A stretch of DNA of 60,926 nt, the filler included. It is 4 parts of 4 records of this genome, joined end to end, with 100 filler letters (N's around TTAATTAATTAA, not from the genome) between each part and the next. Parts side by side here need not be neighbours in the genome. Positions count along the whole stretch, not along the records: positions 52,936 to 60,926 come from SRR20825019_786; 3 more parts are not named here. The stretch is one strand, 5' to 3'. Shown in pieces: positions 15,714 through 60,926 of this stretch. The translations under genes and the position numbers were made by a program. Each line of letters begins with the position of its first letter. The first letter of the stretch is position 1. Below the pieces are notes generated by a model, which did no database searches, was not told where the DNA came from, and saw only the letters and a program-made list of their open reading frames with translations.

Positions 15714-15803
15714 TTCGAGTCACGCCTGGACGGCCTGGTCACGATCTGCATGATGGGACGGTAGCCCGGAAATCCGTACCCCCCCCCCCCCCCCCCCCCC
15801 CCC

Positions 15804-15903
15804 NNNNNNNNNNNNNNNNNNNNNNNNNNNNNNNNNNNNNNNNNNNNTTAATTAATTAANNNNNNNNNNNNNNNNNNNNNNNNNNNNNNNNNNNNNNNNN
15901 NNN
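15804..15903. other. Artificial contig spacer
   Basis: N44-TTAATTAATTAA-N44 (stops in all six frames). Confidence 0.99.
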
Positions 15904-17143
15904 GCTGAAGATCAAGCACAACAACGTGCTGGGTTATTTCATCGAAACAACGGCCACCCACGCCGAAAAGATGCTGTCGCCACCGCTGTCCGAAACCTTT
16001 ATCCACCGTCAGACCACGGCCAATCAGGTGCGGTTCACCACCGTTGAGTTGTCCGAGATGGAGACCAAGATCCTGAATGCGGGCAACCGTGCGATCGAGA
16101 CGGAAAAGCGGCTCTATCAAATGCTTTCCGACACTGTTCTGGCAAAGGCGGCCGAGATTTTTCAGACCGCCACCGCGCTGGCCGAACTTGATGTGTCCTG
16201 TGCCCTTGCCCGTCTGGCGCGCGCCGAAGACTGGTGCCGCCCGCAAGTGGACGACAGCCGCGCGTTTGACATCGTCGGTGGGCGGCATCCTGTCGTGGAA
16301 AAATCCCTGCGCGATGGATCAGGTGCGCCGTTCATCGCCAACGACTGCAACCTGACCGCCGAAGACGGATCGAACATCTGGCTGCTGACCGGTCCGAACA
16401 TGGCCGGTAAGTCGACCTTCCTGCGGCAGAACGCCCTGATCGCCCTGCTGGCGCAAATGGGCAGCTACGTGCCTGCCACCACTGCCCGTATCGGCGTGAT
16501 CAGCCAGTTGTTCAGCCGCGTCGGCGCCGCTGACGATCTGGCACGCGGACGGTCCACGTTCATGGTGGAAATGGTCGAAACCGCGGCGATCCTGAATCAG
16601 GCGGACGACAGGGCGCTGGTGATCCTGGACGAAATCGGTCGCGGCACGGCTACCTATGACGGTCTGTCCATCGCTTGGGCGACACTGGAACACCTGCACG
16701 ACGGCAACAAAAGCCGCGCGCTGTTCGCCACGCACTATCACGAACTGACCGCGCTGGCCGGCAAGCTGGACCATGTCGACAACGCGACCGTCGCCGTCAA
16801 GGAATTCGACGGCGAGGTCGTGTTCCTACATGAGGTCCAAAAAGGCGCGGCAGACCGGTCCTATGGCGTGCAGGTCGCACAGCTTGCCGGGTTGCCACCC
16901 TCGGTCATCGCCCGCGCCCGCACGGTGCTGGAGGCGCTGGAAAAGGGCGAGCGCGAAGGCGGTGCCACGCAAAAGGCAATTATCGACGACCTGCCATTGT
17001 TCAGCATGCAGGCCACCGCAGCCGCACCAAAAGCCGCGAAAAGCCCTGTGTTGGATTTGATAGGCGATCTGCACCCTGACGAGATGACGCCGAAACAGGC
17101 GCTTGAGGCGCTCTACAAACTGAAAGAGGCGGCCAAAACCTGA
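15904..17143 (+). CDS. mutS: DNA mismatch repair protein MutS, 5'-truncated
   Basis: [58 protein letters not shown]. Confidence 0.98.
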
Positions 17144-23085: not shown

Positions 23086-23695
23086 GTTTCAACTCCTTGA
23101 TCTGCAAAACGGCTGCCTGCGCGTCCGTATGGCTGGTGTGAGCAATACAATCAAATGTCCATGCTTTTTGGGCTGTATCAAGCTCTGACTGCCAGATTTC
23201 CCCTTTTGGGAACAACGCTTGCCCTTCGGAAGACATATGTTGTGCGACAAATTCAAGCAATTCGGAAAGCTGCGACAACGCCCGTGCCGAAATGACATCG
23301 GCATTCAGCGGGTCGATCTCTTCAATCCGCCGGGCCACAACAGTCGCGTTCAGGCCAATTTCGCGTATCGCGGTGCGCAGAAAGGTCGATTTTCGCTGAT
23401 CGCTTTCCACCAGAGTAAATCTGGTGTCAGGGGCCTCATGTTTGGCGAAGATCGCACAAATGATGGCTGGAAACCCGCCTCCGCTGCCAAAATCGGCCCA
23501 ATGCGCAACTTTTGGTGCCAGCTTCCAAACCTGTGCCGAATCCCAGATGTGCCGGTTCCACAACTCGGGCGCGCTGGAACGCGAAACAAGGTTGATCTTG
23601 GCATTCCATTTCAGGAAGAGGTCATGAAAGCCTTGAAGGTCATGCAATGTTTCACGTGAAACATCATCGGCAAGCCAGTCCGGTACAATCGTCAT
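23078..23695 (-). CDS. rsmG: 16S rRNA m7G527 methyltransferase RsmG (GidB)
   Basis: [35 protein letters not shown]. Confidence 0.97.
23648..23663. promoter_or_regulatory. parS site inside rsmG
   Basis: Perfect palindrome TGTTTCACGTGAAACA, just upstream of parAB. Confidence 0.95.
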
Positions 23696-25551
23696 GCGGA
23701 TTTCTTCTTGTGTTGCCGCAGCTTAGCCAAAAGCAACGCCAATGCCGCTGGCGTCATCCCTTCAACCCGCGCAGCCTGGGCAAGGTTGCTCGGCCGGATG
23801 CGCTCAAGCTTTGAGGTCAGCTCGTTCGAAAGACCGCTGATGCCCGCGTAAACGAATCCGTCTGGAATCACATGCGCTTCGTCCTTTTGCAGGCGGTCGA
23901 TATCCTTTTGCTGACGGTCGATGTAGTTTGCATAAAGCGCGTCGCGGGCAAGTTGGACCTGAATAGGCGGATCAATGGTGTCCAGATCGGGCTGAACCCG
24001 AACTACATCGAAAAACTGAACTTCCGGAAAAGCAAGAAGTTGATAGGGCGTCCGCCGTGTCCCGTCCTCTTTGACCGCAATTCCAGCGGCGGTGATTTGC
24101 TTTGGCGAGTATTTCTCGCGCGTCATCGCCTGGTAACCCGCCTCAAGCGCGTCGCGCTTGGCCTCAAACAGACGGCGGCGGCCTTCGGAAACCACACCCA
24201 GTTCGATCGCCTGTGGAGTCAGCCGTTGGTCAGCGTTATCGGCGCGCAGGGACAACCGGAACTCGGCCCGTGACGTGAACATCCGATACGGCTCGGTCAC
24301 CCCGCGTGTTGTCAGATCGTCGATCATCACGCCAATATAGCTGGTTGCGCGTCCAAAATGCACAGGATCTCGCCCCTGCGCCAGACATGCGGCATTCAGA
24401 CCGGCAACCATTCCTTGGGCTGCGGCCTCTTCATAGCCCGTTGTCCCGTTGATCTGCCCCGCAAGGAACAAGTGCGATGTCGCACGCAGTTGCAGCGAGG
24501 CGTCCAGCGCGCGCGGATCGACATAGTCGTATTCAATCGCATATCCGGGTTGCAGGATCACCGCCTCTTCCAGCCCGACGATGGAATGGATGTAATCCTG
24601 CTGCACATCGACAGGCAGAGATGTTGAAATCCCGTTGGGGTAAACGGTGTTGCCCGTCAGGCTTTCTGGTTCCAGAAACACCTGGTGCGAGGATTTGTCG
24701 GCAAAACGCACGACTTTATCCTCGATCGATGGGCAATAGCGCGGGCCTGTGCCATCGATATGGCCGCCATACATCGCGGACAGTGAAAGGTTTTTCGAAA
24801 TAATCTCGTGGGTGCGTTCATTCGTGTGCGTGATGCCGCAAGACACCTGACGGGCGGACAATTGCGTTGTTTCAAACGAGAAAAACGCGGGATCATCGTC
24901 GCCCTGCTGTTCTTCGAGGATCGACCAGTTGATAGTGCGCGTGTCCAGACGCGGCGGAGTGCCCGTCTTGAGCCGTCCCAATGGCAGACCAAAACTGTCG
25001 ATCCGCTCTGCCAGACGAACCGAAGCTTTGTCGCCCATGCGCCCGCCCGAGCGTTTCTCTTCGCCAATATGGATAATGCCGCGCAAGAATGTGCCCGTCG
25101 TCAGAACGACGGTCGAGCAGTCGATCAAAGTGCCGTCCGCGAGTTCGACGCCCGTCACCTGCGTGCCAGTCATTTTCAGGTCGACCACTTCGCCCTCGAC
25201 CACAGTCAGGTTCGGCTGCGCCAACGTCGCCGCCAGCATTTCGCGCTGGTAGATTGCGCGGTCGGCCTGCGCGCGCGGTCCCTGGACCGCGGGGCCTTTG
25301 CGGCGATTCAGCAGGCGGAACTGGATACCGGCCTTGTCTGCGACTTTGCCCATGACGCCGTCCATGGCGTCAATCTCGCGCACCAGGTGGCCTTTGCCCA
25401 AGCCACCAATCGCTGGGTTGCACGACATAACGCCAATGCCGGACAACGTCATCGTAACCAGCGCCGTATTCGCCCCCATCCGCGCAGCCGCATGGGCGGC
25501 CTCTGCTCCTGCATGGCCGCCACCGATTACCAGAACGTCAAAATGTTTCAC
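23692..25551 (-). CDS. mnmG: tRNA U34 modification enzyme MnmG (GidA)
   Basis: [40 protein letters not shown]; start probably GTG at 25551 (GGAG upstream), alternatively ATG 25569. Confidence 0.98.
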
Positions 25552-25559
25552 GTGAAACA
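25544..25559. promoter_or_regulatory. parS site at the mnmG start
   Basis: Perfect palindrome TGTTTCACGTGAAACA. Confidence 0.95.
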
Positions 25560-25565
25560 CTCCTG

Positions 25566-26846
25566 TCATTTACCCAGGCAGAAGCTGGAAAAGATTTCAT
25601 CCAGCAGGTTTTCTACATCGATGCGACCCACAAGGAATTCAAGGCTGCGAATCGCGATCCGCAACTCCTCTGCCGCCAAGTCATAAACCTCTGGCCCCTG
25701 TTTGACGAGGTCTTGCGCGGTCTCCAAAGCTGCAACGGCGGATTGCAGCGAGGTCCGGTGCCGTTCACGCGAGGTCAGGCCGGCGTGCGCAACTTTGTCG
25801 GAAAACACAGCTTTCACCGCTTGAACCAGATCCGTCACACCAGCGCCGGTCACACCGGACACCCCTGTCCCGTCGGACCGCAGATCAGCCTTGGGGGCGA
25901 CGACGATGTCCTGTGGCAAGGGTGTCAGCGGCAGCGCAGACATATCATCTGTCAGGAACACCCGCAGGTCCGCCGTTCTGGCGCGGGCGATGGCGCGTTC
26001 GATCCCGATCGCTTCCACATGATCATCGCTGTCGCGCAGGCCAGCGGTGTCCAGGAATGTCACCGGCAAACCATCCAGATCCATGCGCACTTCGATCACA
26101 TCGCGGGTGGTGCCTGCGAATTCCGAGGTGATGGCCGCATCACGACCAGCTAACGCATTGAGAAGAGTAGACTTTCCGGCGTTTGGCAGACCAACGATGG
26201 CCACTTCGAACCCGGACCGCACCCGTTCGGCCACATAGGACCGCGAAACCTCGTCCGACGCCTGCAAAATGACCTCGGCAAGCAGATCGACGACCTCTGG
26301 CGCCACATCAACCGGCACGTCTTCATCGGCAAAATCAATGGTGACTTCCAGCAACGACGCCGCATGGATCAGCCGTGCGCGCCAGTCCTCGACAACCTTG
26401 CTCAGCGCGCCTTCGACGGTCTGCATCGCCTGGGCACGTTGGAATTCCGTTTCGGCGTCGATCAGATCAGCCAGCCCCTCGACCTGCGCCAGGTCCATCT
26501 TGCCGTTTTCCAAGGCACGGCGGGTGAATTCACCGGGTTCCGCCAGACGCAGCCCTTCGATCTCACCCAGAACGGACAGGACCCGTTGCAGGATGGCGAT
26601 GCTGCCGTGCAGGTGCAGCTCGATCACGTCCTCGCCGGTGAAACTGTGCGGCGCGGCGAATGTCAGGACCAGCGCACGGTCCAACAGTTCGTCACCCGCA
26701 CGCACGGCACGGACAGCAAAGCACCCCGCGTCAGGCAGCGCACCGCACAGCATCTGACCCGCGTGATGGGCGGACGGACCGGACACGCGCACAACGGCCA
26801 CGCCCGCGCGGCCCTGCGCCGTGGCAAGGGCGAAAATCGTATCCAT
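25566..26846 (-). CDS. mnmE: tRNA modification GTPase MnmE (TrmE)
   Basis: [32 protein letters not shown]-terminal FCLGK. Confidence 0.98.
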
Positions 26847-27379: not shown

Positions 27380-27479
27380 NNNNNNNNNNNNNNNNNNNNN
27401 NNNNNNNNNNNNNNNNNNNNNNNTTAATTAATTAANNNNNNNNNNNNNNNNNNNNNNNNNNNNNNNNNNNNNNNNNNNN
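27380..27479. other. Artificial contig spacer
   Basis: N44-TTAATTAATTAA-N44. Confidence 0.99.
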
Positions 27480-27932
27480 CCCCCCCCCCCCCCCCCCCCC
27501 CCGCCGTAGTACGGGACGCTGCCTCAGTGGTTGGCGAGGACAGCCTCCAGGGGCGCCGCGGGACCGTGCTGCCGCGGGAGGCCGCCGGGCCACCCGCCGC
27601 CTGGCCGGATCAGTCTCGATCGACCACGACTGAAAAGGATCATGTCTGGGAACTGACGTCATAACCAAGTATTCCCACGTATTTTCACCGAAGAAACCAC
27701 CACCACGGCACTTGGCGGGAAGCAACCCAGACCGATGATTCCGCACCCATACACGACCGTGACCGAACCGCTGTAAGAATGAATCATCATGCAATACCTT
27801 GGCTGCGGACTGATCCCGTGACTTAGGATGAGGCCGCGCGGCCCGGCCGACGGCCGGGCGGAGCCGCCGGACTCAATGAGGCCAACGGTATCGTGCAGTT
27901 ATCGTCCTGACGGCCAGCCAGGATGTTCCAAC

Positions 27933-38192: not shown

Positions 38193-41100
38193 TCATTGTC
38201 TGGCCAGCTCACTCTTCGGATACGAAGTGCCGCCATTTCTAACATACTTGCTTTCCTCGTCCTTGAATAGGTAATACTGACGACGAGAAACAGAATCTGT
38301 GCTAAAGCAGAACGAATCCTTCCGCACTTCGAGAGGAGGAGGCCACCTCTCCACTGTCTCATCCAAAACCTCTGCAAAATATGCAATATACGACTTTCTA
38401 CAGTCACGAGAGTCAGAGACAGGAGCATGCACGGACGAAGAGCCTACCCTTGGCCTCGGCGCTCGAGCGCCTTCCTATACAGCCTTGATGGGCGCCAAAG
38501 TTTCAATATCCCGTCGTCTTCTCCCGAAAAGAAACTGCGGCGAGAAACGATGCTGTGTGTACATTCTCCATCAAGATGATCAACGATTCTGGTTGAGCAG
38601 CATTAGTCAACAATATAGCAGATCGGGATGCAACTTCACCCTCTTACCTGGCTCCTTTAATCTTCAAGATCTTCATCATAATTGCATTTCGTTCATTGGG
38701 GGATATGTATCGTCGTTCAATATGGAACACAGGTTGTGAAATGTGATCATCCACACGAACATAATTGGCGATAAGATCGATTTCGGCCTGGTGCGACTGA
38801 TGAATGCAGTTTGTATATTTGGCTTTTTTGGCAACTCGTGGACTCGAACGATATGGCGAAGATGCCTCTAGTTCATACTTGAGACGTGCATGTGTTCGAG
38901 ACCGTGTGTTGCCCGCTGGAGAAGATGGTGTCGCTTTTCTGCTTGAAGATATATTGGGTGAACACGAGGTTGTCTGCTTGGGGGACGGCTTCGTCTGGCT
39001 GGGAGTCATATTTCCCTTCAAGTCAAGGTGCCCACCCACCGCAAGCCCCATCTTCATCTCGGATTCATCTACTCCCAGATACGCCGCATGAACTTGGAGT
39101 TCTTGAGATCCTGCGGGCTTATTCATTGCTTCTCCTATCAGCAAATACTCTTGCACAGTAAGTCCGGCCATGTAGGCCCGGGTTCCTGTGTATTTGTGGC
39201 ATCCTCCAAACTGGGGAAACCGCATGAGATATCTGAGTGGGGTTGGTTCTCCGCCCATGTTGATGAGAAATTCTGTGTACTTCACATCAATGACGAATAT
39301 ATGAGAGGGAACACGAATCACGCAGTCGGTCATTGGCCCCCCGGGGAATGTTTCCAGCCATGGATACTTCTGCCACTGCAACGTAGGGCCGAGTTTCTTG
39401 TCAATTTCTCCCCATTGACGCATATATTGATGGAACTCCTTCGCCTGTTCATGTGCTTGCACCGGTACAGTAAGCAGGACCAAGAAGCGAGGTTCGTCGT
39501 CCTCGCCGCGTTCCATTCGGTGCTTGTTTACCAGCAGGCCCACCACTAGCGTGCACAAGTATGCCCCTAAGGAATTCTCCTGACTGTACTGTGCTCCTAT
39601 CACCGCCATTGTAACTGTCTCTCTCAACCTTTCATCATAGTATCTTAGCAGAGCAATTAGGCATGATTCAATATTCGCATGGCCACTATACCTCTTCATC
39701 TTATACCATTGGCGGTTGTTCGGAATATATTTGGAATGGATGTGCTTCACCACAATGCCCTCCTGGCGCTGGGCGAGTGATCGACCAAAATTCAACTTGA
39801 TAGTCTCCATTCCCGCGGTCCTCTGCGACCCCCTAAGGTCAACTCGCTTTGCATCACTAATATGAACGTGGTTCGGTCGCGGCTTAATTATTTTCTTCAG
39901 ACGCTCTCGCCGTTCCTCCAGTGGCTTTGGCATGTAGTTTAAGCCATTATACCACAATATGTCAAACAAAACAACCAAAAGATGCCGGCCCTTCTTGATA
40001 TCCTCTCCAAACCTTGTTCCCATTTGCTGCACGGTGCCGAAGGGGAGTATTTCACCCCTACTCGTGGCATTTGTCAGAATAGACGTCTTGTATCAGCTAT
40101 CGCACCCTTACCTCGTCTCATCGTAGGCAAGCAACTCGCCATCTAGGATGCATTCTTGGACCGTATCACCAGCATCTATCCCCGTTGAGGTTCCAAGGCA
40201 GGCAAGAATATGTTCTTTCACATCAATACGGTCTGCAGTGCTGTCACGCCCACCTCGACTGAATATCCGAACCTTTTCGTCGAGATCCTTGCTGTAATGA
40301 ATCTGTATGCGCTCTCCGTCATATTTCTGTTCGCAGTAGTACACCGGATATGGTGCATTTGCGAGGGATGCTACCATCTTGTTTGTGTCGGGACTCATTC
40401 TACGACAGAGGGCTACCGAAACATAGACTCCAATGGATGGGCAGAGCTGGTCTTGAATGAACTTGGAATCTACGCCCCCCTGGTTCTGCGCCTGAATAAC
40501 TGCTTTGATTCTTCGGCAAGCAACCACAAAATTGGAGTTTCTGATCCAGATCCGATTCATCAACTCATGAAAGCCATTGAAGAAGTGACTTGGCCTGATA
40601 TTCTTGAAACGCATATCCTTTAAAATGATGCGGACAGCCCATTTTGCCTCGACAGCAGTCAAATGAACGAACAAGTCACTCAGTACACCACTTCCATTCC
40701 TCTTTACAGTGCGTTCGTGAACACAACCAGACTGTTTCTGCCGATAGACTGAAGCCAGGTACTCCAATGCGTTGTGCATGGCATTAATGGTAATAGTGGG
40801 AGTTGTGGGACTCCCCCGGTTGACCACAAATGCCTTCACGCGTAGGGATAAGTCTCCGATAGATTCATCATGCCCCTTCCACGCCTCCGTGCGGTAGTCC
40901 TCCAGCCACTTCGTTCTTCTGTGGCCCTTTTGAAGCCCATAGGCTGACAACAACTCCTTCAGAAGAGTATACTCTTTCATATCATAGACTCGTTCACGAT
41001 CAAGCTCGGGCACCATCAAACGCAATGTTTGTTGCAGGTCTCCAAGACCTCCTTTCTCAAGGCTTGTGAAGAAATCATGAACGATATTCTCTACCGCATC

Positions 41101-41226
41101 ACCTTTTCGAATACCAGTCGCTCTCTTGCTCTGATCCAACTTTTCAACATCCTCTAAGAGTTGACATAATAGAGCAAAAACCTGATTTTCGGAGGAGACC
41201 TCTGCTTTAGCAGACGCCCTTCTCAT
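38193..41226 (-). CDS. ATP-dependent DNA ligase, LIG4-like (DBD, adenylation, OB, probable BRCT), multi-exon
   Basis: RVYDMKE, EQKYDGERIQIH (motif I), ILDGELLAYD (III), FDILWYNG (IIIa), EGIVVK (IV), WYKMK (V), MRFP; 3' end approximate. Confidence 0.88.
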
Positions 41227-52835: not shown

Positions 52836-52935
52836 NNNNNNNNNNNNNNNNNNNNNNNNNNNNNNNNNNNNNNNNNNNNTTAATTAATTAANNNNNNNNN
52901 NNNNNNNNNNNNNNNNNNNNNNNNNNNNNNNNNNN
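52836..52935. other. Artificial contig spacer
   Basis: N44-TTAATTAATTAA-N44. Confidence 0.99.
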
Positions 52936-53034
52936 GGGGAGATGATAGTCAATAATTGGCGCCATCCTAGAGCCGATGATCAGTGCAAGGGCCACTCACT
53001 CGTGCAACCCTTCCCACCCCGCACGCACTCAGTC

Positions 53035-54134
53035 ATGCAAACGCTCTGTCTGATACCTTACGCGCAGTCACCCACAAGCGCAGACGTCGCGCGACTTGTG
53101 CCGAACGCTACGGCCGCGAGACGGAGTGATAAGTACGGAAGGGTAAGTTGGCTTGAATGTGCGGCACGGGTAGAAATCTGGAGGTCCGCGGTGTATCACC
53201 GAGAGTGGGGGTGGTGCCGTGCATGGGAAGGCCGGGTCTCGGCACCGTCGATGGATTGGTCAGTCTCAGACGGGTCCGACTGCCGGGGGGCGCGCCGGGG
53301 ATAGTTTGAGGTTTCGACCGGCCCGGCGGGCGGGCGCAGCGGCGGTTGCTGGAGAAGGCATTGACACGTGTCGCCGCAGACACCACTGCACCTTGCCTCG
53401 GAGCTGACAGAAGATGGGGACAGTGTGCGGTACATGGTGGGCATTACCGGGGTGGACCCCGGCGTGAGGGATAACTATGGCACGACGCCGTTGCACAACG
53501 CAGCGCTGAACGCCAATGGCGGCGGCTGCCGAGCGATCGCGCTGCTGGCTGGCGCAGGGGCGGATGTGAATGTCGAGGCGGACACTGGGAACACCCCGCT
53601 GTTCATCGCAATACAGTGTACGTTGTTGGGCTAAGCCGCTTGCGGGCAGGGCGTGATGCTGATCGGGGACAACACCAGATGGCCAGGCTCCGGCAGTCGC
53701 GGCATTACTGGACGCCGGTGCGCTCAGAACGCGTCGCCATGCCCGGCGCGGCGTCACCCCGGCGCAGTTTGCCACCGAGCGGGGACGGGATGACATCGCC
53801 GAAGTACTAAGACGTAAGTGCAATAGATGCTCAGGGCGCGAGGAACTTTGGGGGGTTGGGTTAGTGTTAGGGTTAGGTTAGATGTGATCTCGGGAGGTGT
53901 GGCTGTGTGGCTGTCTGAACGGACAATGCAGGTCACATCCCTGCCCCGTGCATCACGGCACTGGTGCTGGCCCGGAGATTGGAGGTGCGGTCTCAGTCCG
54001 AGGAGAGGGAGCTGGATGATCGAGCCGGAACACTGGTGATCCTTCCAGCAGATATTCTCGAGACCGTGGCTGCCGTGTTTGCCCGCGAGGCCGGCGGGAG
54101 GCTTGTTAAGAAGGGTGGAACGAACACCTTGTAA
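53035..54134 (+). CDS. Ankyrin-repeat protein (multi-exon)
   Basis: DKYGR|TPLHLA across intron 53142-53379, GTTPLHNAA, GADVN..GNTPLFIA, GVTPAQFA; ends approximate. Confidence 0.8.
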
Positions 54135-54296
54135 CCTCGGTGAGGCTACGATCTACGGAGCTTACATCCATACATGTGAAAGCAGACATCGTTGCTCCCT
54201 GACTTCAGCCATCTGAATGGCTAGTGCATGACCAAAAAATCCGCAAAAACAAGAAACAAATCCCTTGATGATATTTACAAAGGGACTCGCGGTATA

Positions 54297-57113
54297 CTAA
54301 TAAGGAACATCCTTGCCCAAGATGGCGGCGGCATACTGAAGCGTTATAATGTCGCGTTTCTTGGACGATTCGTCGGTGACCGGAGCAATATTGGCAATCA
54401 TGGCGGATGGAGAGCTAGTGGACAAGGCCGGGTACAGAATGCGGGCGAGCTGGCTCTCTCTGATCTCCTGGGTAGGAACAGCCTTGGGGTTGCGACCGAT
54501 CTTGACAATCATGTTCTTGAGAGCGAAGAGCCCCTGGCGAATGATGGTGCCCTGGCCGTCAATCTTGGCATTGCCAGATGACGTGTCGCTCATAAGCTCC
54601 AGTCCCGCCAGATCTACCAGTGTGATCTGTTTTCTGGGGTTCTCCTGCTTGGCGCTGCTGAACAATCCAATCCTGAACACACGGTGAGAGCGAGAGCTGC
54701 CCTGGGGGTTGCCCTCTGTGATAGCCACCTCGCGCATCCTGCCTCCACGGCGATATAGCCGGAGGGTCTCTGCCGGGTCGGTGACAGTTACCCATGGGTC
54801 ATGACGGACGCCCCTCTTGTTCACAATCTTCTTGGATCCAACGATCTTGAGCACCTTATTGACCTCAAATACATCGAGTGTCTTGAGAATCGTGTTGCCT
54901 GCCTTGGTCACCCTGTTACGCCCACGGCTGTCCTGCTCGGGGTGGAGCAAATCGCGGAGGACAGTGTTCTGTGAGGTGCTGGTGGGTGTGTCGCCATATA
55001 TCTCAAAGTCCATCACCTTGATGACCCAGCCGGACTGGGTGGACTTGAATTGGAACAACGTATCCATGATTCGTGGGATCAACCCGGGGTCGGTGGTGTC
55101 GCCCTCCATGGTGTAGGTCTTCCCCGTTCCAGTATAGCCGAAACAGAAGATCGTTCCCCAGCTGACCTCTCTCGGTTTCTGGAGCATCACATCCAAAACC
55201 TTGCCATCATTAGTCACGACCTCCTCAAACACTTCCTCGTTCGAAGGTCCGCGGTCTAGCGAATCCGTGAAATCCGACGGCGAAAACACTCCGGTGTAGC
55301 TCATCGACTCATCGGGGAACACCTCCTGCTTGGTCGACACAGCAAGATCCACCGATGTCTCAGGATACGTCACCGTGCACTGGTTCTCCTCGTCATCACA
55401 GCTGAGGTTGTACTCGTCGCTCGGTGACTCGTGCGCAGGCAGGATGGGCCGCACGCGGACGTACGTGTCCAGCCTCTCATTCTTGCCGCGCTTTTCCATC
55501 CTCACCTCATCCTTAGCCTCCGCCCGCAGGTGGACCACTCGGGGTGCCTTCTTCTTCACGGGCTTCTCATCAGCGGGGCGAATGTTCAATGCCTCCTGGG
55601 CATACTTCAGTGTGTCCGTGGTGAACTTCAGATGCTCCTCATCCGGTGAGACCGTTGCAATCATGACGGTCTGCATTTCAGAGGGATGGCCGCGGAACGA
55701 GCTGTCCAGGGCACGCGTCAGGGTGCTATCCCGAAGATTCGGCTTGTTACCCGCGGCCAGCGCGCTGATAACACGGGCCAGCGCCTCCAGGCTGGAGTTG
55801 ATCGCCAGGCCTTGGTTCTTGGCAACGCTATTCTTGCCAGATGTGGACAGCTCCTTCCCTGCAAGGTCAACCAGGGTCAACGTCCCCGTGCGGGTGGCGC
55901 CGGAGTTCGAGGTGATCGCGTACTTGACCTCGATAATCATATGGGAGCGCGAGCTCTGCTTGTTCATCGCAGTGGCTTCAGTCACCCGGTTGGCCGACCA
56001 AGTCTTGATCAAGTCCCCGACTTTCTGCTGTGCATACCTCAGTCGCTCACCTGCGGACTTAGAATCCAGGTCAGGCAAAATCCTTGCCAGATCAAGGGGG
56101 ATGAAGGGGTCCTGCAAGCCGGGCAGCTTGTTTCCGTTACCGTCGTACGACACAAGCTTAGGGGTGGTGACATCGTCACTGGTGAAGAACTTAATGTCCG
56201 CATTCTGCGTCTCAGCCTTCTTGTTCAGCCTGAACCCGTCCATATTCACATTCGCCGAGCTCTTGCCGTTGTTGTACAACTGATACGGCAGAACCTGGAT
56301 ATCTGTCGAAGCCGCCTCCTTACTCTTCTCATATAGATCAACAAAGAGATCCCCGAGTGCCATCTGCAGAACGCCGAACTCATTGCCTGACTCGGCATCA
56401 CGCGACCTGCCCGTGCCCTCCATAGTGAACGTCTTTCCGGAGCCGGACTGCCCATACACAAACACGGTTCCTTTGAAGCCGTCCTCGGTCGCGACCCGGT
56501 TTACAATGTGACGAACGCCGCTCTCAGCGTAGGCTTGCTTGTTGTTGGCGGATGTGCCGAGAACGTTGCTAAAGCCATCATAGGCAGTGGGCGCCCCAGA
56601 CTTGTTATACACAATAGCCGCGAAGCCTGCTCCGTGAGACTTTCCCCTGACGCACTCGGTCTCGCCGCTCTTAGGCGGGCCCCGCACTCGGACCACGGAG
56701 AGTACAGGCTGGTTCTCAGAGAACACATCGCGGTCCTCAAGGGCGGGCTGCTCCTCCCCAAGCGTCTCGTCATCATCGATGTCGGACGGAAGCACTTTGT
56801 CGTCGACAGCAACACCGCCCAGTTGGCCGGCCTCCTCCTTGACGGCAGGCGCTGGAACTTCATGGTCCCCGGTCACGTCAGCGTCGTGTTGCGGTGGAGG
56901 CGGGTCGTCCTCAACTCCATCCTCCAGCCTTCTCAGCTCCTCTCGGCGCTTCTTCAGATTTTCGAGCTCGAGCTCCTTGGCCTGGATGGCCTGAGCCAGT
57001 TTTTGGTTCTTTCTCGCCAGGTCACTGCGGCCTCCTGCCACCAGCCTGTCGGCTGCTAAGGCGGTCCCTACGACTGCCAGCAGGAACAGGACCAGTGCCA
57101 CCCTCGATCCCAT
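54297..57113 (-). CDS. Kinesin-like protein with two tandem motor domains and an apparent signal peptide, intronless
   Basis: Motor 1 (aa ~135-511): VRVR, GQSGSGKT, NKQSSRSH, LVDLAGKE, INSSL, RDSTLTRAL. Motor 2 (aa ~546-933): VRVRP, GYTGTGKT, SSRSH, LVDLAGLE, RESQLARIL. Confidence 0.92.
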   Translation of the reverse strand: MGSRVALVLFLLAVVGTALAADRLVAGGRSDLARKNQKLAQAIQAKELELENLKKRREELRRLEDGVEDDPPPPQHDADVTGDHEVPAPAVKEEAGQLGGVAVDDKVLPSDIDDDETLGEEQPALEDRDVFSENQPVLSVVRVRGPPKSGETECVRGKSHGAGFAAIVYNKSGAPTAYDGFSNVLGTSANNKQAYAESGVRHIVNRVATEDGFKGTVFVYGQSGSGKTFTMEGTGRSRDAESGNEFGVLQMALGDLFVDLYEKSKEAASTDIQVLPYQLYNNGKSSANVNMDGFRLNKKAETQNADIKFFTSDDVTTPKLVSYDGNGNKLPGLQDPFIPLDLARILPDLDSKSAGERLRYAQQKVGDLIKTWSANRVTEATAMNKQSSRSHMIIEVKYAITSNSGATRTGTLTLVDLAGKELSTSGKNSVAKNQGLAINSSLEALARVISALAAGNKPNLRDSTLTRALDSSFRGHPSEMQTVMIATVSPDEEHLKFTTDTLKYAQEALNIRPADEKPVKKKAPRVVHLRAEAKDEVRMEKRGKNERLDTYVRVRPILPAHESPSDEYNLSCDDEENQCTVTYPETSVDLAVSTKQEVFPDESMSYTGVFSPSDFTDSLDRGPSNEEVFEEVVTNDGKVLDVMLQKPREVSWGTIFCFGYTGTGKTYTMEGDTTDPGLIPRIMDTLFQFKSTQSGWVIKVMDFEIYGDTPTSTSQNTVLRDLLHPEQDSRGRNRVTKAGNTILKTLDVFEVNKVLKIVGSKKIVNKRGVRHDPWVTVTDPAETLRLYRRGGRMREVAITEGNPQGSSRSHRVFRIGLFSSAKQENPRKQITLVDLAGLELMSDTSSGNAKIDGQGTIIRQGLFALKNMIVKIGRNPKAVPTQEIRESQLARILYPALSTSSPSAMIANIAPVTDESSKKRDIITLQYAAAILGKDVPY

Positions 57114-57154
57114 GGTGTTACCGATACAGTTCGGAAGACCTGCCTAGTCTGGTA

Positions 57155-57163
57155 CTTTATATA
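57155..57163 (-). promoter_or_regulatory. Candidate TATA box for the kinesin gene
   Basis: TATATAAAG on the minus strand ~45 bp upstream of ATG 57113, at the island edge. Confidence 0.5.
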
Positions 57164-57179
57164 CGAGTGAGCAGCCCTC

Positions 57180-57700
57180 GCTCCCCGCGTCCGAGCGGCC
57201 AGGCCGGGCACACCCGCCTCGGAGCCACCGCCGACACGGCCGGGCCGTGCCGGGGCCGGGCCAGGCGGGCCGGGGCGGGGGTGACGAGGGACCGGACCGC
57301 CGACGGGCCCCCGCCACAGTGCGCACGGCACTGATGAGGCCCTCGGACTCGTCGGAGATGACGGGGAACCGTAGCCGGTCACGGGGGTATGACCTACACC
57401 GGGATCGCCCAACCCAAATATATCGGTATATCGAGACCATGAGATGCCGCCAGTCCGCGGGGCTGTGCGGCCGGCGCGCCGGGCCGGGCGCCCGCCGGGG
57501 CGCCCCCCCCGGCGCCCCCCCGCCGCCGGCGGCCCGGCCGGCCCGCCGGCCGGGCGGCCGGGGGTCACCTCCGTCCACGCGCTCTCCCGGGACCGGACTG
57601 CAGGACTGCACTCGGTGGCGCCCGGGCCCGGCCACGGCGCCCGCGCGGGGGCGCCCGGTCGTGACGGTCCCCCGCCGTACCGGACCAGCGGCTCACGCCA
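57180..57700. promoter_or_regulatory. GC-rich island between divergent kinesin and Sec14 genes
   Basis: Pure G/C run ~57465-57565; TATA-like elements on both flanks. Confidence 0.62.
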
Positions 57701-57751
57701 CGGTGCACTTATATCAACTCAGTGGCTTCAGTAGCAGCGAGGTGGCACCCG

Positions 57752-58774
57752 ATGAACTGCTTCCGTAAAACGCACCGGCGCTCACCGTCATCCGACGACC
57801 TACCGGCCGTGGCGCCCACATATGATGGGGACCCCAGGTTCACCCTAAGTGCGGAGGAGACGAGGTGGTGCGTCGAGCTAAGAGAGGCGCTGCGAGCGGC
57901 GGGTGTTGCAGAGCCCCGACCGGACTTGATGTTGGCCCAGTTTGCCATCATTGGGAAGGGGAACGTGCGGAAGGCAGTCAAGCGTGTGAAGAACTACCGG
58001 AAAGTGATCTTGGGCGAATACGGTTATTCTTTGGAGAAGGCCCGAGCTAATGGACACTTCATGAATGCGAAGTGGCCTGGTATGGTCTTAGCGGCCGCGC
58101 CACTGTCCACTGGTGAGCCAGTGGTTGCTGTGGATGTTCTTCCGTACCGCCCGTCGCAGCTGGAGTGGGACACCGAGTGGCCAAGACTGATTGTTGAGTT
58201 TGTGATGATTATGGATGCGGTGAACTGTGACCTTGAGTGCATCCGGAAGGGTGGCTCCATGGTGATTCACATGGAGGGCATGGGATGGCACAACTTCAAC
58301 TTGAAGATGGAGGAGAAGGCCGCTCCGCTCTATCAGGAGGCTTACCCTTGCAGGTTCCATTCCTTCCCGCTGGTCGACGCAGGCCCAATCGCCACGATCA
58401 TAATGCGGCTCGTAAGAGCGTTTCTGAAAAAAAAGATTGCTGACCGTATGATAATCTGTAAGAAATCGGAGCTGTATTCATCCAAGTATGGCTACACGAG
58501 AGAAGGGCTCCCTCCGGTCCTTGGAGGGACATATGACCGGCCGCTTGACGAGTACATTTCAGACCTGCTCCAGCGACGGGCCGAGGCGGAAAGCAGGGTG
58601 AGGGTGTCTCCCCCGAGCGAAGATGGCTCCGCCGTAGCGCCACGTGATGCCACGCCTCCGGAAGCGAGGCAGTCTTTCTTTGGCCAGTTTTGTGGCTGCG
58701 GGAGCGGTACCGAGGTGGGACCTCTGAAGAGCGATTCCGATCCAATCCACGCCGATCATCCAAGCGCGGACTGA
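57752..58774 (+). CDS. CRAL-TRIO/Sec14 lipid-binding protein, intronless
   Basis: DLMLAQF..KAVKRVKNY (CRAL-TRIO N), EGMGWHNF, QEAYPCRF, FLKKKIADRM, LPPVLGGT. Confidence 0.85.
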   Translation: MNCFRKTHRRSPSSDDLPAVAPTYDGDPRFTLSAEETRWCVELREALRAAGVAEPRPDLMLAQFAIIGKGNVRKAVKRVKNYRKVILGEYGYSLEKARANGHFMNAKWPGMVLAAAPLSTGEPVVAVDVLPYRPSQLEWDTEWPRLIVEFVMIMDAVNCDLECIRKGGSMVIHMEGMGWHNFNLKMEEKAAPLYQEAYPCRFHSFPLVDAGPIATIIMRLVRAFLKKKIADRMIICKKSELYSSKYGYTREGLPPVLGGTYDRPLDEYISDLLQRRAEAESRVRVSPPSEDGSAVAPRDATPPEARQSFFGQFCGCGSGTEVGPLKSDSDPIHADHPSAD

Positions 58775-59596
58775 ATACTGTCACATCTTGCAGAATATGA
58801 CAAATTACTATGGTATATATATGACATTAGCATGTTGGCGACGCGGAGGGGAGACTGTCAGTGTCTGCGCAAGGTTTGATAAATCACTGATCACGAGTGG
58901 CGTGCCTCCTTCCACGGAGAGTCGATGGCGGATGGATGTGCGAGGACGGATCGGATCTTGTTTATATCTCGGTTGTCGTGACGAGCCTGTATGGAGCGTG
59001 CCACCGTCCACGTGGTCCGTCATAGGGCACGATGAAGTGGCGCGACTGCCACAGGACCGGGGGCCCGGCCGGCGGGAGAATGAGAGCGCGGCATCTGTGC
59101 TCCTAACTTGGTAGCATTAGTGGATATGTCGTGTACACCTTTGTCTAACAATGTAAATTCATTATGTTGAGATATCTGTTATATTAAGGGGTATTTACCG
59201 AAATTGAGACTTGAATCCACCTGAACAACTGACTGACAACTGGAAATTGAAACTGACCGGAGCGGACCGTCCGCGGGGTGCCGTGCACGCCGGCGCCCCT
59301 CGGCCTCCTGGGCCCGGCCCCCGGCCGCCTGACTCGGAAACCGCCCAGCAGTGCGTTGCTGAGGTCCCGGACGTCCTCACCATGGACAAGTGACGCCACT
59401 CACGGTCACCGCGCCGCACGCCACGTCGGCCAAGGAGGCGGGGTTATCCCGAGGCTGCGGCCATTGTGGCAGTACGGCTCCACGGGTGTGTGGCACGCCT
59501 GCCGTTGTCCGGCTTGAACCAGGGAACCTCTATAAGTGAACCGCTTGCTGGGTGACGGATTAGTCACCTCGACGAGGCCAGCCTTTCACGATGTTG

Positions 59597-60816
59597 ATGG
59601 GCCTTGCACTGAGTGTAAGTCGCGCACAGGATGGTGGCGGGTTCGACTGGTTCTAACTGTTATTTGCAGACAATTGGAGTAAGGGTGTAGCTGTGGCGGG
59701 CGTAGCGACGTCGTGGGTTAACTGTTGCTTGCAGATTGGTTGGATTGCCTTTACCAACAGCAAGAAGAGAGGCAGCAGGAAGAGCGAGGTGGGCTGCAGG
59801 GCTGTGGCTGGTGGTGTGATGTGGTGATTTGTTGGGGGGCGGATGGTCAAGTGTTCAGGAGCCCGGCATGTCGCTTCTAGTTTGTGACAGTGAGGCGTGG
59901 TATCGGTGTATGTGGTGAGGGCCCGGGCTATTGAGGGGTACCTATGTTATCCAGTCACTCCGACATTTGAGAAACGGGCGATTGTGGACTTGTCCGCACG
60001 CCCCCTGGCCCTCACAGTCCCGCCCACGTGCCTCTATATGGATGCACTCGGTGTTACACAAGTCGCCGTCACGCCGGTGGTGCGAACGCTCCTCCCGTTC
60101 TGAGCGGCCTAGGCGGCATGGCACTGGCAACTGGGCAGCGAAGGGGACTAGGGTTGAGGTTAGGTTAGGAGTACCTTGTGAGGTACCTAGTGGGTGGACG
60201 TCATGGCCTTGTAGCACCTTTGGTCGGGTCGTCTCTGGGCGTGAAGTGTTGACAGTGTGCGATCTGATGACTTACCGTTGGGGCAGGTCCGCGTCTTGAT
60301 CCTCGGGCTGGACAACGCCGGAAAGACCACCGTATTGAAGCGCCATGTGCGTGAGGATATTGCGCACATTACGCCAACCCAAGGTTGTACTTTCAGTCGT
60401 GCCGGCGCAACAGGGGTCTGACGGGGGGGTCTTTCGCAGGCTTCAATGTCAAGACGTTCCAGACCGAAGGACTGAAGCTGACGGCGTGGGACCTGGGTGG
60501 CCAGAAGAGCATCCGGCCATTCTGGAAGGGATACTTTGAAGGCTCCGACGCCATTGTGAGTTCGGGGCATCGGAACTACCGGTCGGGCGGAATAGCGGCT
60601 AATTTTACTGTAGATGTATATAATCGACAGTAGCGACAAGAAGCGTTTCGAAGAGGCCGGGAATGAGTTGAACTCGCTCCTGGATGAGGTGGGGTGGGCT
60701 GGGGGTGCTGTAGTTGTGGAGGCTGACAGTGGTGGTCTCAGGACATGCTTGCGTCTGTTCCGCTGTTGATCTTTGCCAACAAGCAGGACCTTATCAATGC
60801 TGCTACCCCGGCCGAG
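59597..60816 (+). CDS. Arf-like small GTPase, ARL3/ARL2 group (multi-exon, 3'-truncated)
   Basis: Exons from 60287: LGLDNAGKTT, ITPTQGFNVK, WDLGGQKSIRPFW, DSSDKKRFEE, FANKQDL; putative first exon MGLALS at 59597 is less certain. Confidence 0.88.
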
Positions 60817-60926
60817 GTGAGTGAAGCAATGATTCCGGGTGATGTCTCTGTTCCTCCGCCCTGTCTCTTTACATGTCTGCTTTTGTGCGTGTTGGGACGG
60901 GGGGGGCGGGGGGGGGGGGGGGGGGG

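Follow-up and report, generated by a model that had tools for sequence, protein, structure and literature searches.

The window analysed here, a stretch of DNA of 60,926 bases, consists of four contigs that were joined and does not represent a single locus. Its last contig (positions 52936-60926; 7,991 bases) is eukaryotic and carries a gene that encodes a kinesin with two motor domains in one polypeptide chain. The coding sequence of this gene (54297-57113) is a single open frame on the minus strand, as are all features of the gene described below; it starts with an ATG, contains no intron, and encodes 938 amino acids followed by a stop codon. From the N-terminus to the C-terminus, the chain comprises a hydrophobic helix, a second helix that is short and charged, a disordered acidic spacer, a first motor domain (head 1), a basic linker of 40 residues, and a second motor domain (head 2). 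Neither a stalk nor a tail is present in the 938 residues.

Motor 1 comprises residues 135-509 (55587-56711) and contains the motifs GQSGSGKT, NKQSSRSH, DLAGKE, and INSSL. Motor 2 comprises residues 550-932 (54318-55466), contains GYTGTGKT, NPQGSSRSH, DLAGLE, and IIRQGL, and is complete, but atypical. The kinesin motor profile of Pfam, PF00225, matched the whole protein with an E-value of 1.4e-91. Both halves were also recognized when they were searched alone: residues 135-544 scored 169.3 bits (E-value 1.4e-49) and residues 545-938 scored 144.9 bits (E-value 3.7e-42), the curated cut-off of the profile being 29.3 bits. Translation placed the P-loops of motors 1 and 2 at 56430-56453 and 55116-55139, exactly where the sequence-only reading of this stretch had located them. 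The SSRSH motif of switch I was found at 55941-55955 in motor 1 and at 54684-54698 in motor 2, and the switch II motifs DLAGKE and DLAGLE at 55851-55868 and 54597-54614, respectively. The claim of that reading that two complete kinesin motor domains, each with SSRSH and DLAG, are arranged in tandem was thus borne out, by the scores and motifs of both halves as well as by the predicted folds described below. The best sequence match among solved structures was OSM-3 for motor 1 (7.4e-29) and kinesin-1 for motor 2 (2.8e-19). The two motors share 27% identity over 315 BLASTP columns, which rules out a recent duplication or a collapsed repeat and agrees with the high divergence that had been noted before.

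In a full-length AlphaFold2 model, motor 1 was predicted with a predicted local distance difference test score (pLDDT) of about 85-96 outside of residues 286-336. Motor 2 had few rows in the alignment and was therefore modelled poorly (pLDDT 25-87); the position of the heads relative to each other in this model was accordingly disregarded. When motor 2 was folded alone, its mean pLDDT was 83.8 and its predicted template-modelling score was 0.88. A Foldseek search with the full-length model, of which motor 1 is the confident part, yielded a target template-modelling score of 0.80 to the kinesin-1 chains 8rhb_K and 4hna_K. For motor 2, kinesin motor domains were on top of the Foldseek results, with target scores of up to 0.85 (4lnu_K). 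Judged by motif content and predicted structure, both heads are complete kinesin folds with a Walker A motif, SSRSH, and DxxGxE.

A public sequencing run (X1) contains 83% of the sampled words from the kinesin stretch. Its record carries no RNA label, and the run was taken as RNA-derived only because of the splice joints and adapter ends of its contigs. Specifically, eight GT..AG intervals of the two genes that flank the kinesin gene are missing from the X1 contigs, and identical adapter letters in opposite orientation are found at 57125 in the kinesin gene and at 59566 in the gene of an ARL-like GTPase; we take these letters to be a template-switching complementary DNA (cDNA) adapter. The missing introns, together with the fact that 0.7% of the positions differ, show that X1 is not the source of the window assembly. 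Record 2 of X1 (2,272 nt) is colinear with positions 54880-57125 of the window (2246 nt) with 16 substitutions and no gap (99.3% identity), and covers both P-loops as well as the linker between the heads (55467-55586). The sequence-only reading had left room for two separate genes; instead, one RNA-derived contig was found to span both heads and the linker. Record 1 is colinear and gapless over 53932-54909 and extends into an ankyrin-repeat gene. This gene and the kinesin gene are convergent, their coding ends being about 160 nt apart, and therefore unstranded RNA contigs fuse the 3'-regions of the two genes.

The 5'-end of the cDNA contig, the probable transcription start, lies at 57125, 12 nt upstream of the ATG, and runs on into adapter letters. 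As read from the sequence, a TATA-box-like element, TATATAAAG, is present at 57155-57163, i.e. 30-38 nt upstream of the cDNA 5'-end; the role of the TATA box at about position -30 is established. The context of the start codon is ACCATGG. Comparison of the open reading frames (ORFs) of X1 and the window revealed 18 differences, of which 8 are synonymous and 10 are non-synonymous, with no stop codon and no frameshift, and the frame of 2817 nt is open in both versions. For residues 135-938, six synonymous and four non-synonymous differences were counted, and the ratio of non-synonymous to synonymous differences per site (pN/pS) was 0.21 (binomial P = 0.015 versus neutrality). For residues 1-134, two synonymous and six non-synonymous differences resulted in a pN/pS of 0.99. 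This comparison of the two strains indicates purifying selection on the motor part. A foreign origin of the gene was rejected, as its G+C content at third codon positions (0.72) matches that of the neighboring genes (0.67-0.72). Near-identical short DNA contigs were found in two marine metagenomes, namely, two pieces of 151 nt in X2, with two and zero differences, and one piece of 245 nt with four differences in X3.

These data bear on the possibility that the gene is an artefact or is decaying, i.e. that it is an assembly chimera, a read-through of two genes, or a pseudogene. The assembly is rough, as the window was pieced together from four short contigs, of which one is bacterial, and the exact sequence is absent from the annotated proteins of a collection of 15 billion. 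However, an independent RNA-derived contig, which differs by 0.7% and lacks the introns of the neighboring genes, runs through both heads without a gap, the frame is open and its motor part is under selection, and the promoter, the start site, and a good start codon context are found at the expected places. The artefact explanation is thus largely refuted, and we regard it as very improbable indeed. Conversely, it is highly probable that the gene is a native, transcribed single gene of a marine eukaryote and that neither it nor its architecture is spurious.

The first 21 residues (57051-57113) form a hydrophobic segment, either a signal peptide or a signal anchor. The uncharged run extends from V5 to A21, and A-L-A precedes A21, so that the layout of the leader is a basic residue, 17 uncharged residues, and A-x-A. 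The mean Kyte-Doolittle value of residues 5-21 is 2.74, and this is the sole strongly hydrophobic 17-mer in the protein; AlphaFold2 predicted a helix for residues 2-25. This segment had been missed in the sequence-only reading, and it changes the likely biology. The query and 258 fetched proteins, a few of them not kinesins, were scanned for hydrophobicity, and apart from the query only P0017 among these 259 proteins was found to have such a hydrophobic N-terminus. In two others of the fetched kinesins, P0217 and P0231, a hydrophobic segment is located at the very C-terminal end, and direct membrane anchoring of kinesins is therefore at least predicted elsewhere. The leader is followed by a charged amphipathic helix of residues 30-65 (56919-57026), the only long helix outside of the motors and the linker in the AlphaFold2 model (block pLDDT 79-92 for residues 31-60, and 71 for residues 61-70), which is a possible short coiled coil. 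Residues 67-134 (56712-56915) form an acidic, proline-containing spacer with a net charge of -19, which is predicted to be disordered (pLDDT 31-53).

The leader also raises the possibility of a secreted or organelle-lumen protein, in which case the leader would be cleaved and the kinesin would be exported, e.g. into a host or prey cell, and would act on foreign microtubules. The arrangement of n-, h-, and c-regions resembles that of a signal peptide, A-L-A preceding residue 21. Furthermore, the gene is fast-evolving and has no orthologs, with the N-terminal 134 residues being neutral between the two strains, and it is intron-less (none in 2.8 kb) among intron-rich neighbors, the introns of the ankyrin and ARL genes being spaced every 100-250 nt. 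A string of the RxLx[D/E] type, RRLED, is present at residues 60-64, and may resemble parasite export motifs. However, RRLED lies within a helix rich in R, L, and E, so that a chance occurrence is likely, there is no indication of parasitism, and an uncharged run of 17 residues would also suffice for a signal anchor. No secreted kinesin effectors were found in a literature listing and in the abstracts of the listed articles, which also counts against export. Altogether, export appears rather improbable.

The linker between the heads (residues 510-549; 55467-55586) connects the end of alpha-6 of motor 1 with beta-1 of motor 2 and has a net charge of +5. Its charged character had thus been recognized correctly in the sequence-only reading, whereas its length, given there as about 35 residues, was measured to be 40 residues. 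It begins with a neck-linker-like start (NIRP...), which is followed by a basic stretch and a charged helix (residues 525-552, pLDDT 56-77). HMMER aligned the start, NIRPADEKP, with the start of the OSM-3 neck linker, though it has diverged. The chain ends with the six residues GKDVPY and the stop codon (54297-54317); as had been stated before, it stops right after motor 2, six residues past alpha-6, and motor 2 is followed by neither a neck linker nor a tail. Motor 1 contains an insert in the beta-5/L8 region (residues 283-361; 56031-56267), where hmmsearch aligned 79 residues with 37 profile positions. Residues 286-336 within this insert are predicted to be disordered, with pLDDT values below 50 at residues 286-330 and 332-336.

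The inequality of the two heads, which had also escaped the sequence-only reading, became apparent when they were compared with 232 reference motors, one per fetched kinesin with a domain covering over 250 of the 342 positions of the profile. In the alpha-4 column in which all 232 references have Asn, head 1 has Asn, whereas head 2 has Arg (Arg859; codon at 54537-54539, in the switch II helix). Motor 2 has thus not kept an invariant Asn that is needed for coupling of the ATPase to the microtubule. At the P-loop Gln, which is present in 206 references, head 1 has Gln and head 2 has Tyr, a residue found in none of the references. The switch II Ser (225 of 232) is replaced by Lys, which occurs in no reference, in head 1 and by Leu in head 2, and the Lys of loop L12 (189 of 232) is replaced by Thr and Gln, respectively. 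The motifs of head 1 fit the P-loop pattern GQxxxGK[ST], the switch I pattern NxxSSRSH, the switch II pattern DxxGxE, and the alpha-4 pattern INxSL, and head 1 also has the consensus at RDSxLTR. Head 2 fits Walker A (GxxxxGK[ST]), SSRSH, and DxxGxE, but it has one inserted residue in switch I and three in L12, and it has LSTSS where the consensus is LGGN. A neck linker after alpha-6, a feature of the N-type (plus-end-directed) kinesins, has a putative, diverged start in motor 1 and is absent in motor 2, which stops where other kinesins begin the neck linker.

A tandem kinesin has been engineered that contains two kinesin-1 heads head-to-tail in one chain (bioRxiv 10.1101/2025.06.11.659012). 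With spacers of 7-11 prolines it walked processively hand-over-hand, and after removal of the C-terminal head's neck linker it was bound to microtubules but stationary (10.1101/2025.06.11.659012). The wiring is the same in the natural protein, i.e. the N-terminal head's neck linker, spacer, and N-terminus of the C-terminal head, and the path from alpha-6 to beta-1 has a length of 40 residues, compared to an estimated length of about 32 residues in the best engineered construct (neck linker of 13 residues, 11 prolines, short cover strand). In contrast to the identical engineered heads, the heads of the natural protein are 27% identical, and its spacer is built from a basic segment and a charged helix instead of polyproline. 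Further differences are the Arg at the alpha-4 Asn of the C-terminal head, the hydrophobic N-terminal leader, and the C-head neck linker, which is required for motility of the engineered protein and is essentially absent here.

The effect of a basic residue at the alpha-4 Asn has been characterized for Kar3 and Ncd (PMC3000839). Replacement of Asn by Lys left ATP binding and hydrolysis intact, but stimulation by microtubules was lost, microtubules were tightly bound in the ATP and ADP states, and gliding stopped (PMC3000839). Kar3 N650K, Ncd N600K, and KIF5A N256S concern the same Asn of the switch II helix that is replaced by a basic residue in head 2 (PMC3000839). However, these mutations were made in the laboratory or found in disease, and the dimeric motors that carry them are normal in other respects, whereas the change in head 2 is natural, introduces Arg and not Lys, and is accompanied by several other departures from the consensus.

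The protein could be a symmetric single-chain walker, in which both heads are active and alternate hand-over-hand along one protofilament, so that it would be a self-contained processive transporter. Both heads retain Walker A, SSRSH, and DxxGxE, and the wiring and linker length resemble those of the processive engineered protein. However, only six residues follow alpha-6 of head 2, and the engineered protein that lacked the C-head neck linker was stationary. In addition, Arg replaces in head 2 the Asn that all 232 references share and at which Lys abolishes the motility of Ncd (PMC3000839). Matched kinetics of the heads are unexpected, because the heads are 27% identical and are found on very long branches. 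A symmetric walker is thus unlikely. The sequence-only reading had proposed a single-chain pseudo-heterodimer that could step; one chain with two diverged heads was indeed found, while stepping was not supported, given Arg859 and the missing neck linker of head 2.

Unequal heads are also known from the kinesin-14 heterodimers Kar3-Vik1 and Kar3-Cik1, in which a catalytic head is paired with a motor-homology head that is non-catalytic. These consist of two chains that are joined by a coiled coil and carry their heads at the C-terminus, and Vik1 and Cik1 are not known to have a nucleotide site. Like them, the protein studied here has two unequal microtubule-binding heads, of which, in the reading proposed below, one would mainly hold the microtubule. 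Unlike them, it is a single chain, Walker A, SSRSH, and DxxGxE are retained in its head 2, and its head 1 has the start of a neck linker of the N-kinesin type.

The two motors were included separately in a maximum-likelihood tree of 55 motors (IQ-TREE, LG+G4), from which the references for KIF20A (both), E. huxleyi, and Malassezia had been dropped because they lacked a full-length domain match, and which contained no named representative of kinesin-6, -7, -10, -11, and -13. Neither head was found inside a named kinesin family (kinesin-1 to -14), and their branches were 1.97 and 1.82 substitutions per site long. The heads were not sisters, on branch lengths that are too long to exclude sisterhood. 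Motor 2 was grouped at 80% bootstrap with three unnamed or uncharacterized matches, and motor 1 was attached, without support, beside the branch to kinesin-13-like sequences.

The latter placement would fit a microtubule cross-linker or regulator of microtubule dynamics, whose heads would bind to two microtubules or to a microtubule end, and which would bundle, slide, or depolymerize microtubules. Each chain has two independent predicted microtubule-binding heads, and the partly helical, charged linker of 40 residues could keep them apart. However, 40 residues provide a short reach of about one tubulin repeat, and alpha-4 of motor 1 reads INSSL...LARVISAL and does not contain the kinesin-13-type motif KEC. 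The placement on the kinesin-13 side is unsupported and involves branches of about 1.8-2.0 substitutions per site, and a cross-linking function leaves the N-terminal hydrophobic segment unexplained. We thus regard this explanation as distinctly improbable.

Relatives were searched for in several collections. A word-indexed homolog search with the whole protein yielded 99 matches, of which the best had 34% identity over 37% of the query, and none was an ortholog. An exhaustive HMMER search of 1.84 billion representative proteins yielded 23,193 matches with an E-value of at most 1e-3, seven of them with at most 1e-30, and likewise no ortholog. The HMMER matches were generic kinesins or two-motor predictions, and the top matches have high scores because they, too, carry two motors. 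None of 448 pattern matches in metagenome contigs of the Joint Genome Institute (JGI) was confirmed; the same was true for 13 pattern matches in IMG/VR, so that a link to giant viruses was not supported. The ESM Atlas contained generic kinesin clusters only.

The 99 word-indexed matches and 150 matches from the HMMER search were fetched, and 10 of these 249 kinesin matches contain two full-length motor domains. In five of them the heads are 95-100% identical, and these look like assembly or gene-model artefacts. In three the heads are 65-72% identical, namely, in Achlya hypogyna OQR84285.1 (P0112), Paulinella micropora EP00808_P011517 (P0115), and the metagenome cluster P0116. The remaining two, P0122 and P0225, have strongly diverged heads with 33% and 30% identity, respectively. 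The P0122 cluster has seven members from EukProt and metagenomes, and a cluster mate of P0225, P0271, is the MMETSP transcriptome sequence Transcript_60123, which has one N-terminal and one C-terminal motor 703 residues apart. Apart from the presumable artefacts, these proteins resemble the query in having two full motor domains per predicted chain, but their linkers have lengths of 101-703 residues, compared to 40 residues here. They score like generic kinesins with, at most, about 40% identity over the core, and none is orthologous. The alpha-4 Asn is kept in all of their heads that were checked, in contrast to Arg859 of the query, and the P-loop pattern was matched in all checked heads except for P0116/P0261. 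They have no N-terminal hydrophobic segment, and most of them have coiled-coil or other tails. Together, the diverged two-motor kinesins may form an unrecognized class.

A full-text literature search, which mostly covered sources outside of subscription journals, revealed only the engineered protein, and no printed account of a naturally occurring kinesin that carries two motor domains per chain. Likewise, no natural two-motor kinesin was found in two kinesin surveys (PMC2867816, PMC1434745), the main texts of which were searched by term. The sequence-only reading had considered that the architecture might belong to a dual-motor subfamily that had already been described; two-motor kinesins were found as database predictions, and none was found in print, although a prior printed mention is conceivable.

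The gene order on the last contig is ankyrin-repeat gene (plus strand), kinesin gene (minus), CRAL-TRIO gene (plus), and ARL-like GTPase gene (plus). The 5'-part of the ankyrin-repeat gene (52936-54134) is cut by the start of the contig, and the gene contains three introns of 237, 61, and 118 nt. The spacer between the kinesin and CRAL-TRIO genes (57126-57740) has a G+C content of 75%. The CRAL-TRIO gene (57755-58774) is intron-less over 1 kb, and two metagenome proteins matched its product with 45-50% identity. The ARL2/3-like small GTPase gene (59566-60816) contains six GT..AG introns in about 1.25 kb and a micro-exon of 9 nt (59670-59678), which is bounded by AG and GT and is retained in the RNA contig.

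The four contigs of the window are joined by spacers of 44 N, TTAATTAATTAA, and again 44 N at 15804-15903, 27380-27479, and 52836-52935. Long poly-C or poly-G runs are present at several contig ends (e.g. 15780-15803, 27480-27502, and 60905-60926) and look like sequencing artefacts. The contig at 15904-27379 is bacterial and encodes MutS (15926-17143) and, on the minus strand, MnmE (25569-26846) with a four-nucleotide overlap with MnmG (23695-25569). The MnmE protein clusters at an identity of at least 90% with proteins of Pseudosulfitobacter pseudonitzschiae, and the contig is a contaminant or an associate in the assembly. On a contig other than that of the kinesin gene, a DNA ligase I-like gene is found in two ORFs on the minus strand (40108-41226 and 38644-40032), and the approximately 75 nt between them are probably one short intron. 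No match of this ligase fragment to longer proteins was found.

With respect to the mechanism, we favor a division of labor between the heads. Head 1 would be the working ATPase and thus the engine, because it has the consensus motifs and is followed by the start of an N-kinesin neck linker. Head 2 would be the microtubule-holding head, with an ATPase that is poorly coupled to the microtubule; this is suggested by the Arg at the alpha-4 Asn, the Tyr in the P-loop, the altered L12, and the missing neck linker. The combination of the missing neck linker with a basic residue at the alpha-4 Asn is the reason why an asymmetric machine is preferred. The linker would be approximately long enough for binding of the two heads to neighboring tubulin dimers, and the N-terminal hydrophobic helix would insert the protein into a membrane and thereby replace a cargo-binding tail. 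The protein would then be a monomeric tether or slow hauler of a membrane compartment along microtubules, and dimerization would not be needed. We propose this asymmetric membrane-tether mechanism tentatively, with a probability that we place somewhat below even. As an explanation of the whole, a real native gene for an asymmetric membrane-tethered two-headed kinesin appears best, and falls only just short of an even chance. It is doubtful, though conceivable, that the protein is a natural tandem kinesin that is stalk-less, tail-less, single-chain, and membrane-plugged, with one working and one holding head, and that it is the first recognized member of a wider set of two-motor kinesins in protists.

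Several observations weigh against the asymmetric membrane-tether reading. Head 2 keeps GxxxxGKT, SSRSH, and DxxGxE and, on the basis of these motifs, may be a fully active motor, and its Arg is not the Lys of the mutants that have been studied. Head 1 is itself not free of departures, i.e. the switch II Ser is changed to Lys, the L12 Lys is changed to Thr, and a stretch of 79 residues, mostly of low confidence, replaces the beta-5/L8 element that contacts the microtubule. The leader looks like a cleavable signal peptide; if it were cleaved and the protein translocated, the kinesin would be in the lumen of the endoplasmic reticulum or secreted, and thus away from the cell's own microtubules. 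The predicted helix of residues 30-65 might dimerize the chain, which would result in four heads. The two X1 records share only 30 nt, which are located inside motor 2, so that the whole coding sequence is present in no single contig, and the selection test on the motor part comprised ten differences only. Lastly, no ortholog was found that would show the layout with two heads in a second species.

Textbook kinesins acquire two heads by dimerization via a stalk and bind cargo via a tail. The gene described here represents a transcribed alternative, with both heads on one chain, a linker of about one tubulin repeat, and a hydrophobic leader that would replace the tail. It would be a natural counterpart of the tandem kinesin that was engineered in 2025, and it offers motor biophysics a natural test of the need for a neck linker in either head and of the contribution of an uncoupled head. 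If the leader is a cleaved signal peptide, the protein would be an exported kinesin, which would be surprising in itself. The gene also points to neglected two-motor kinesins in protists, which domain surveys may have dropped as gene-model errors.

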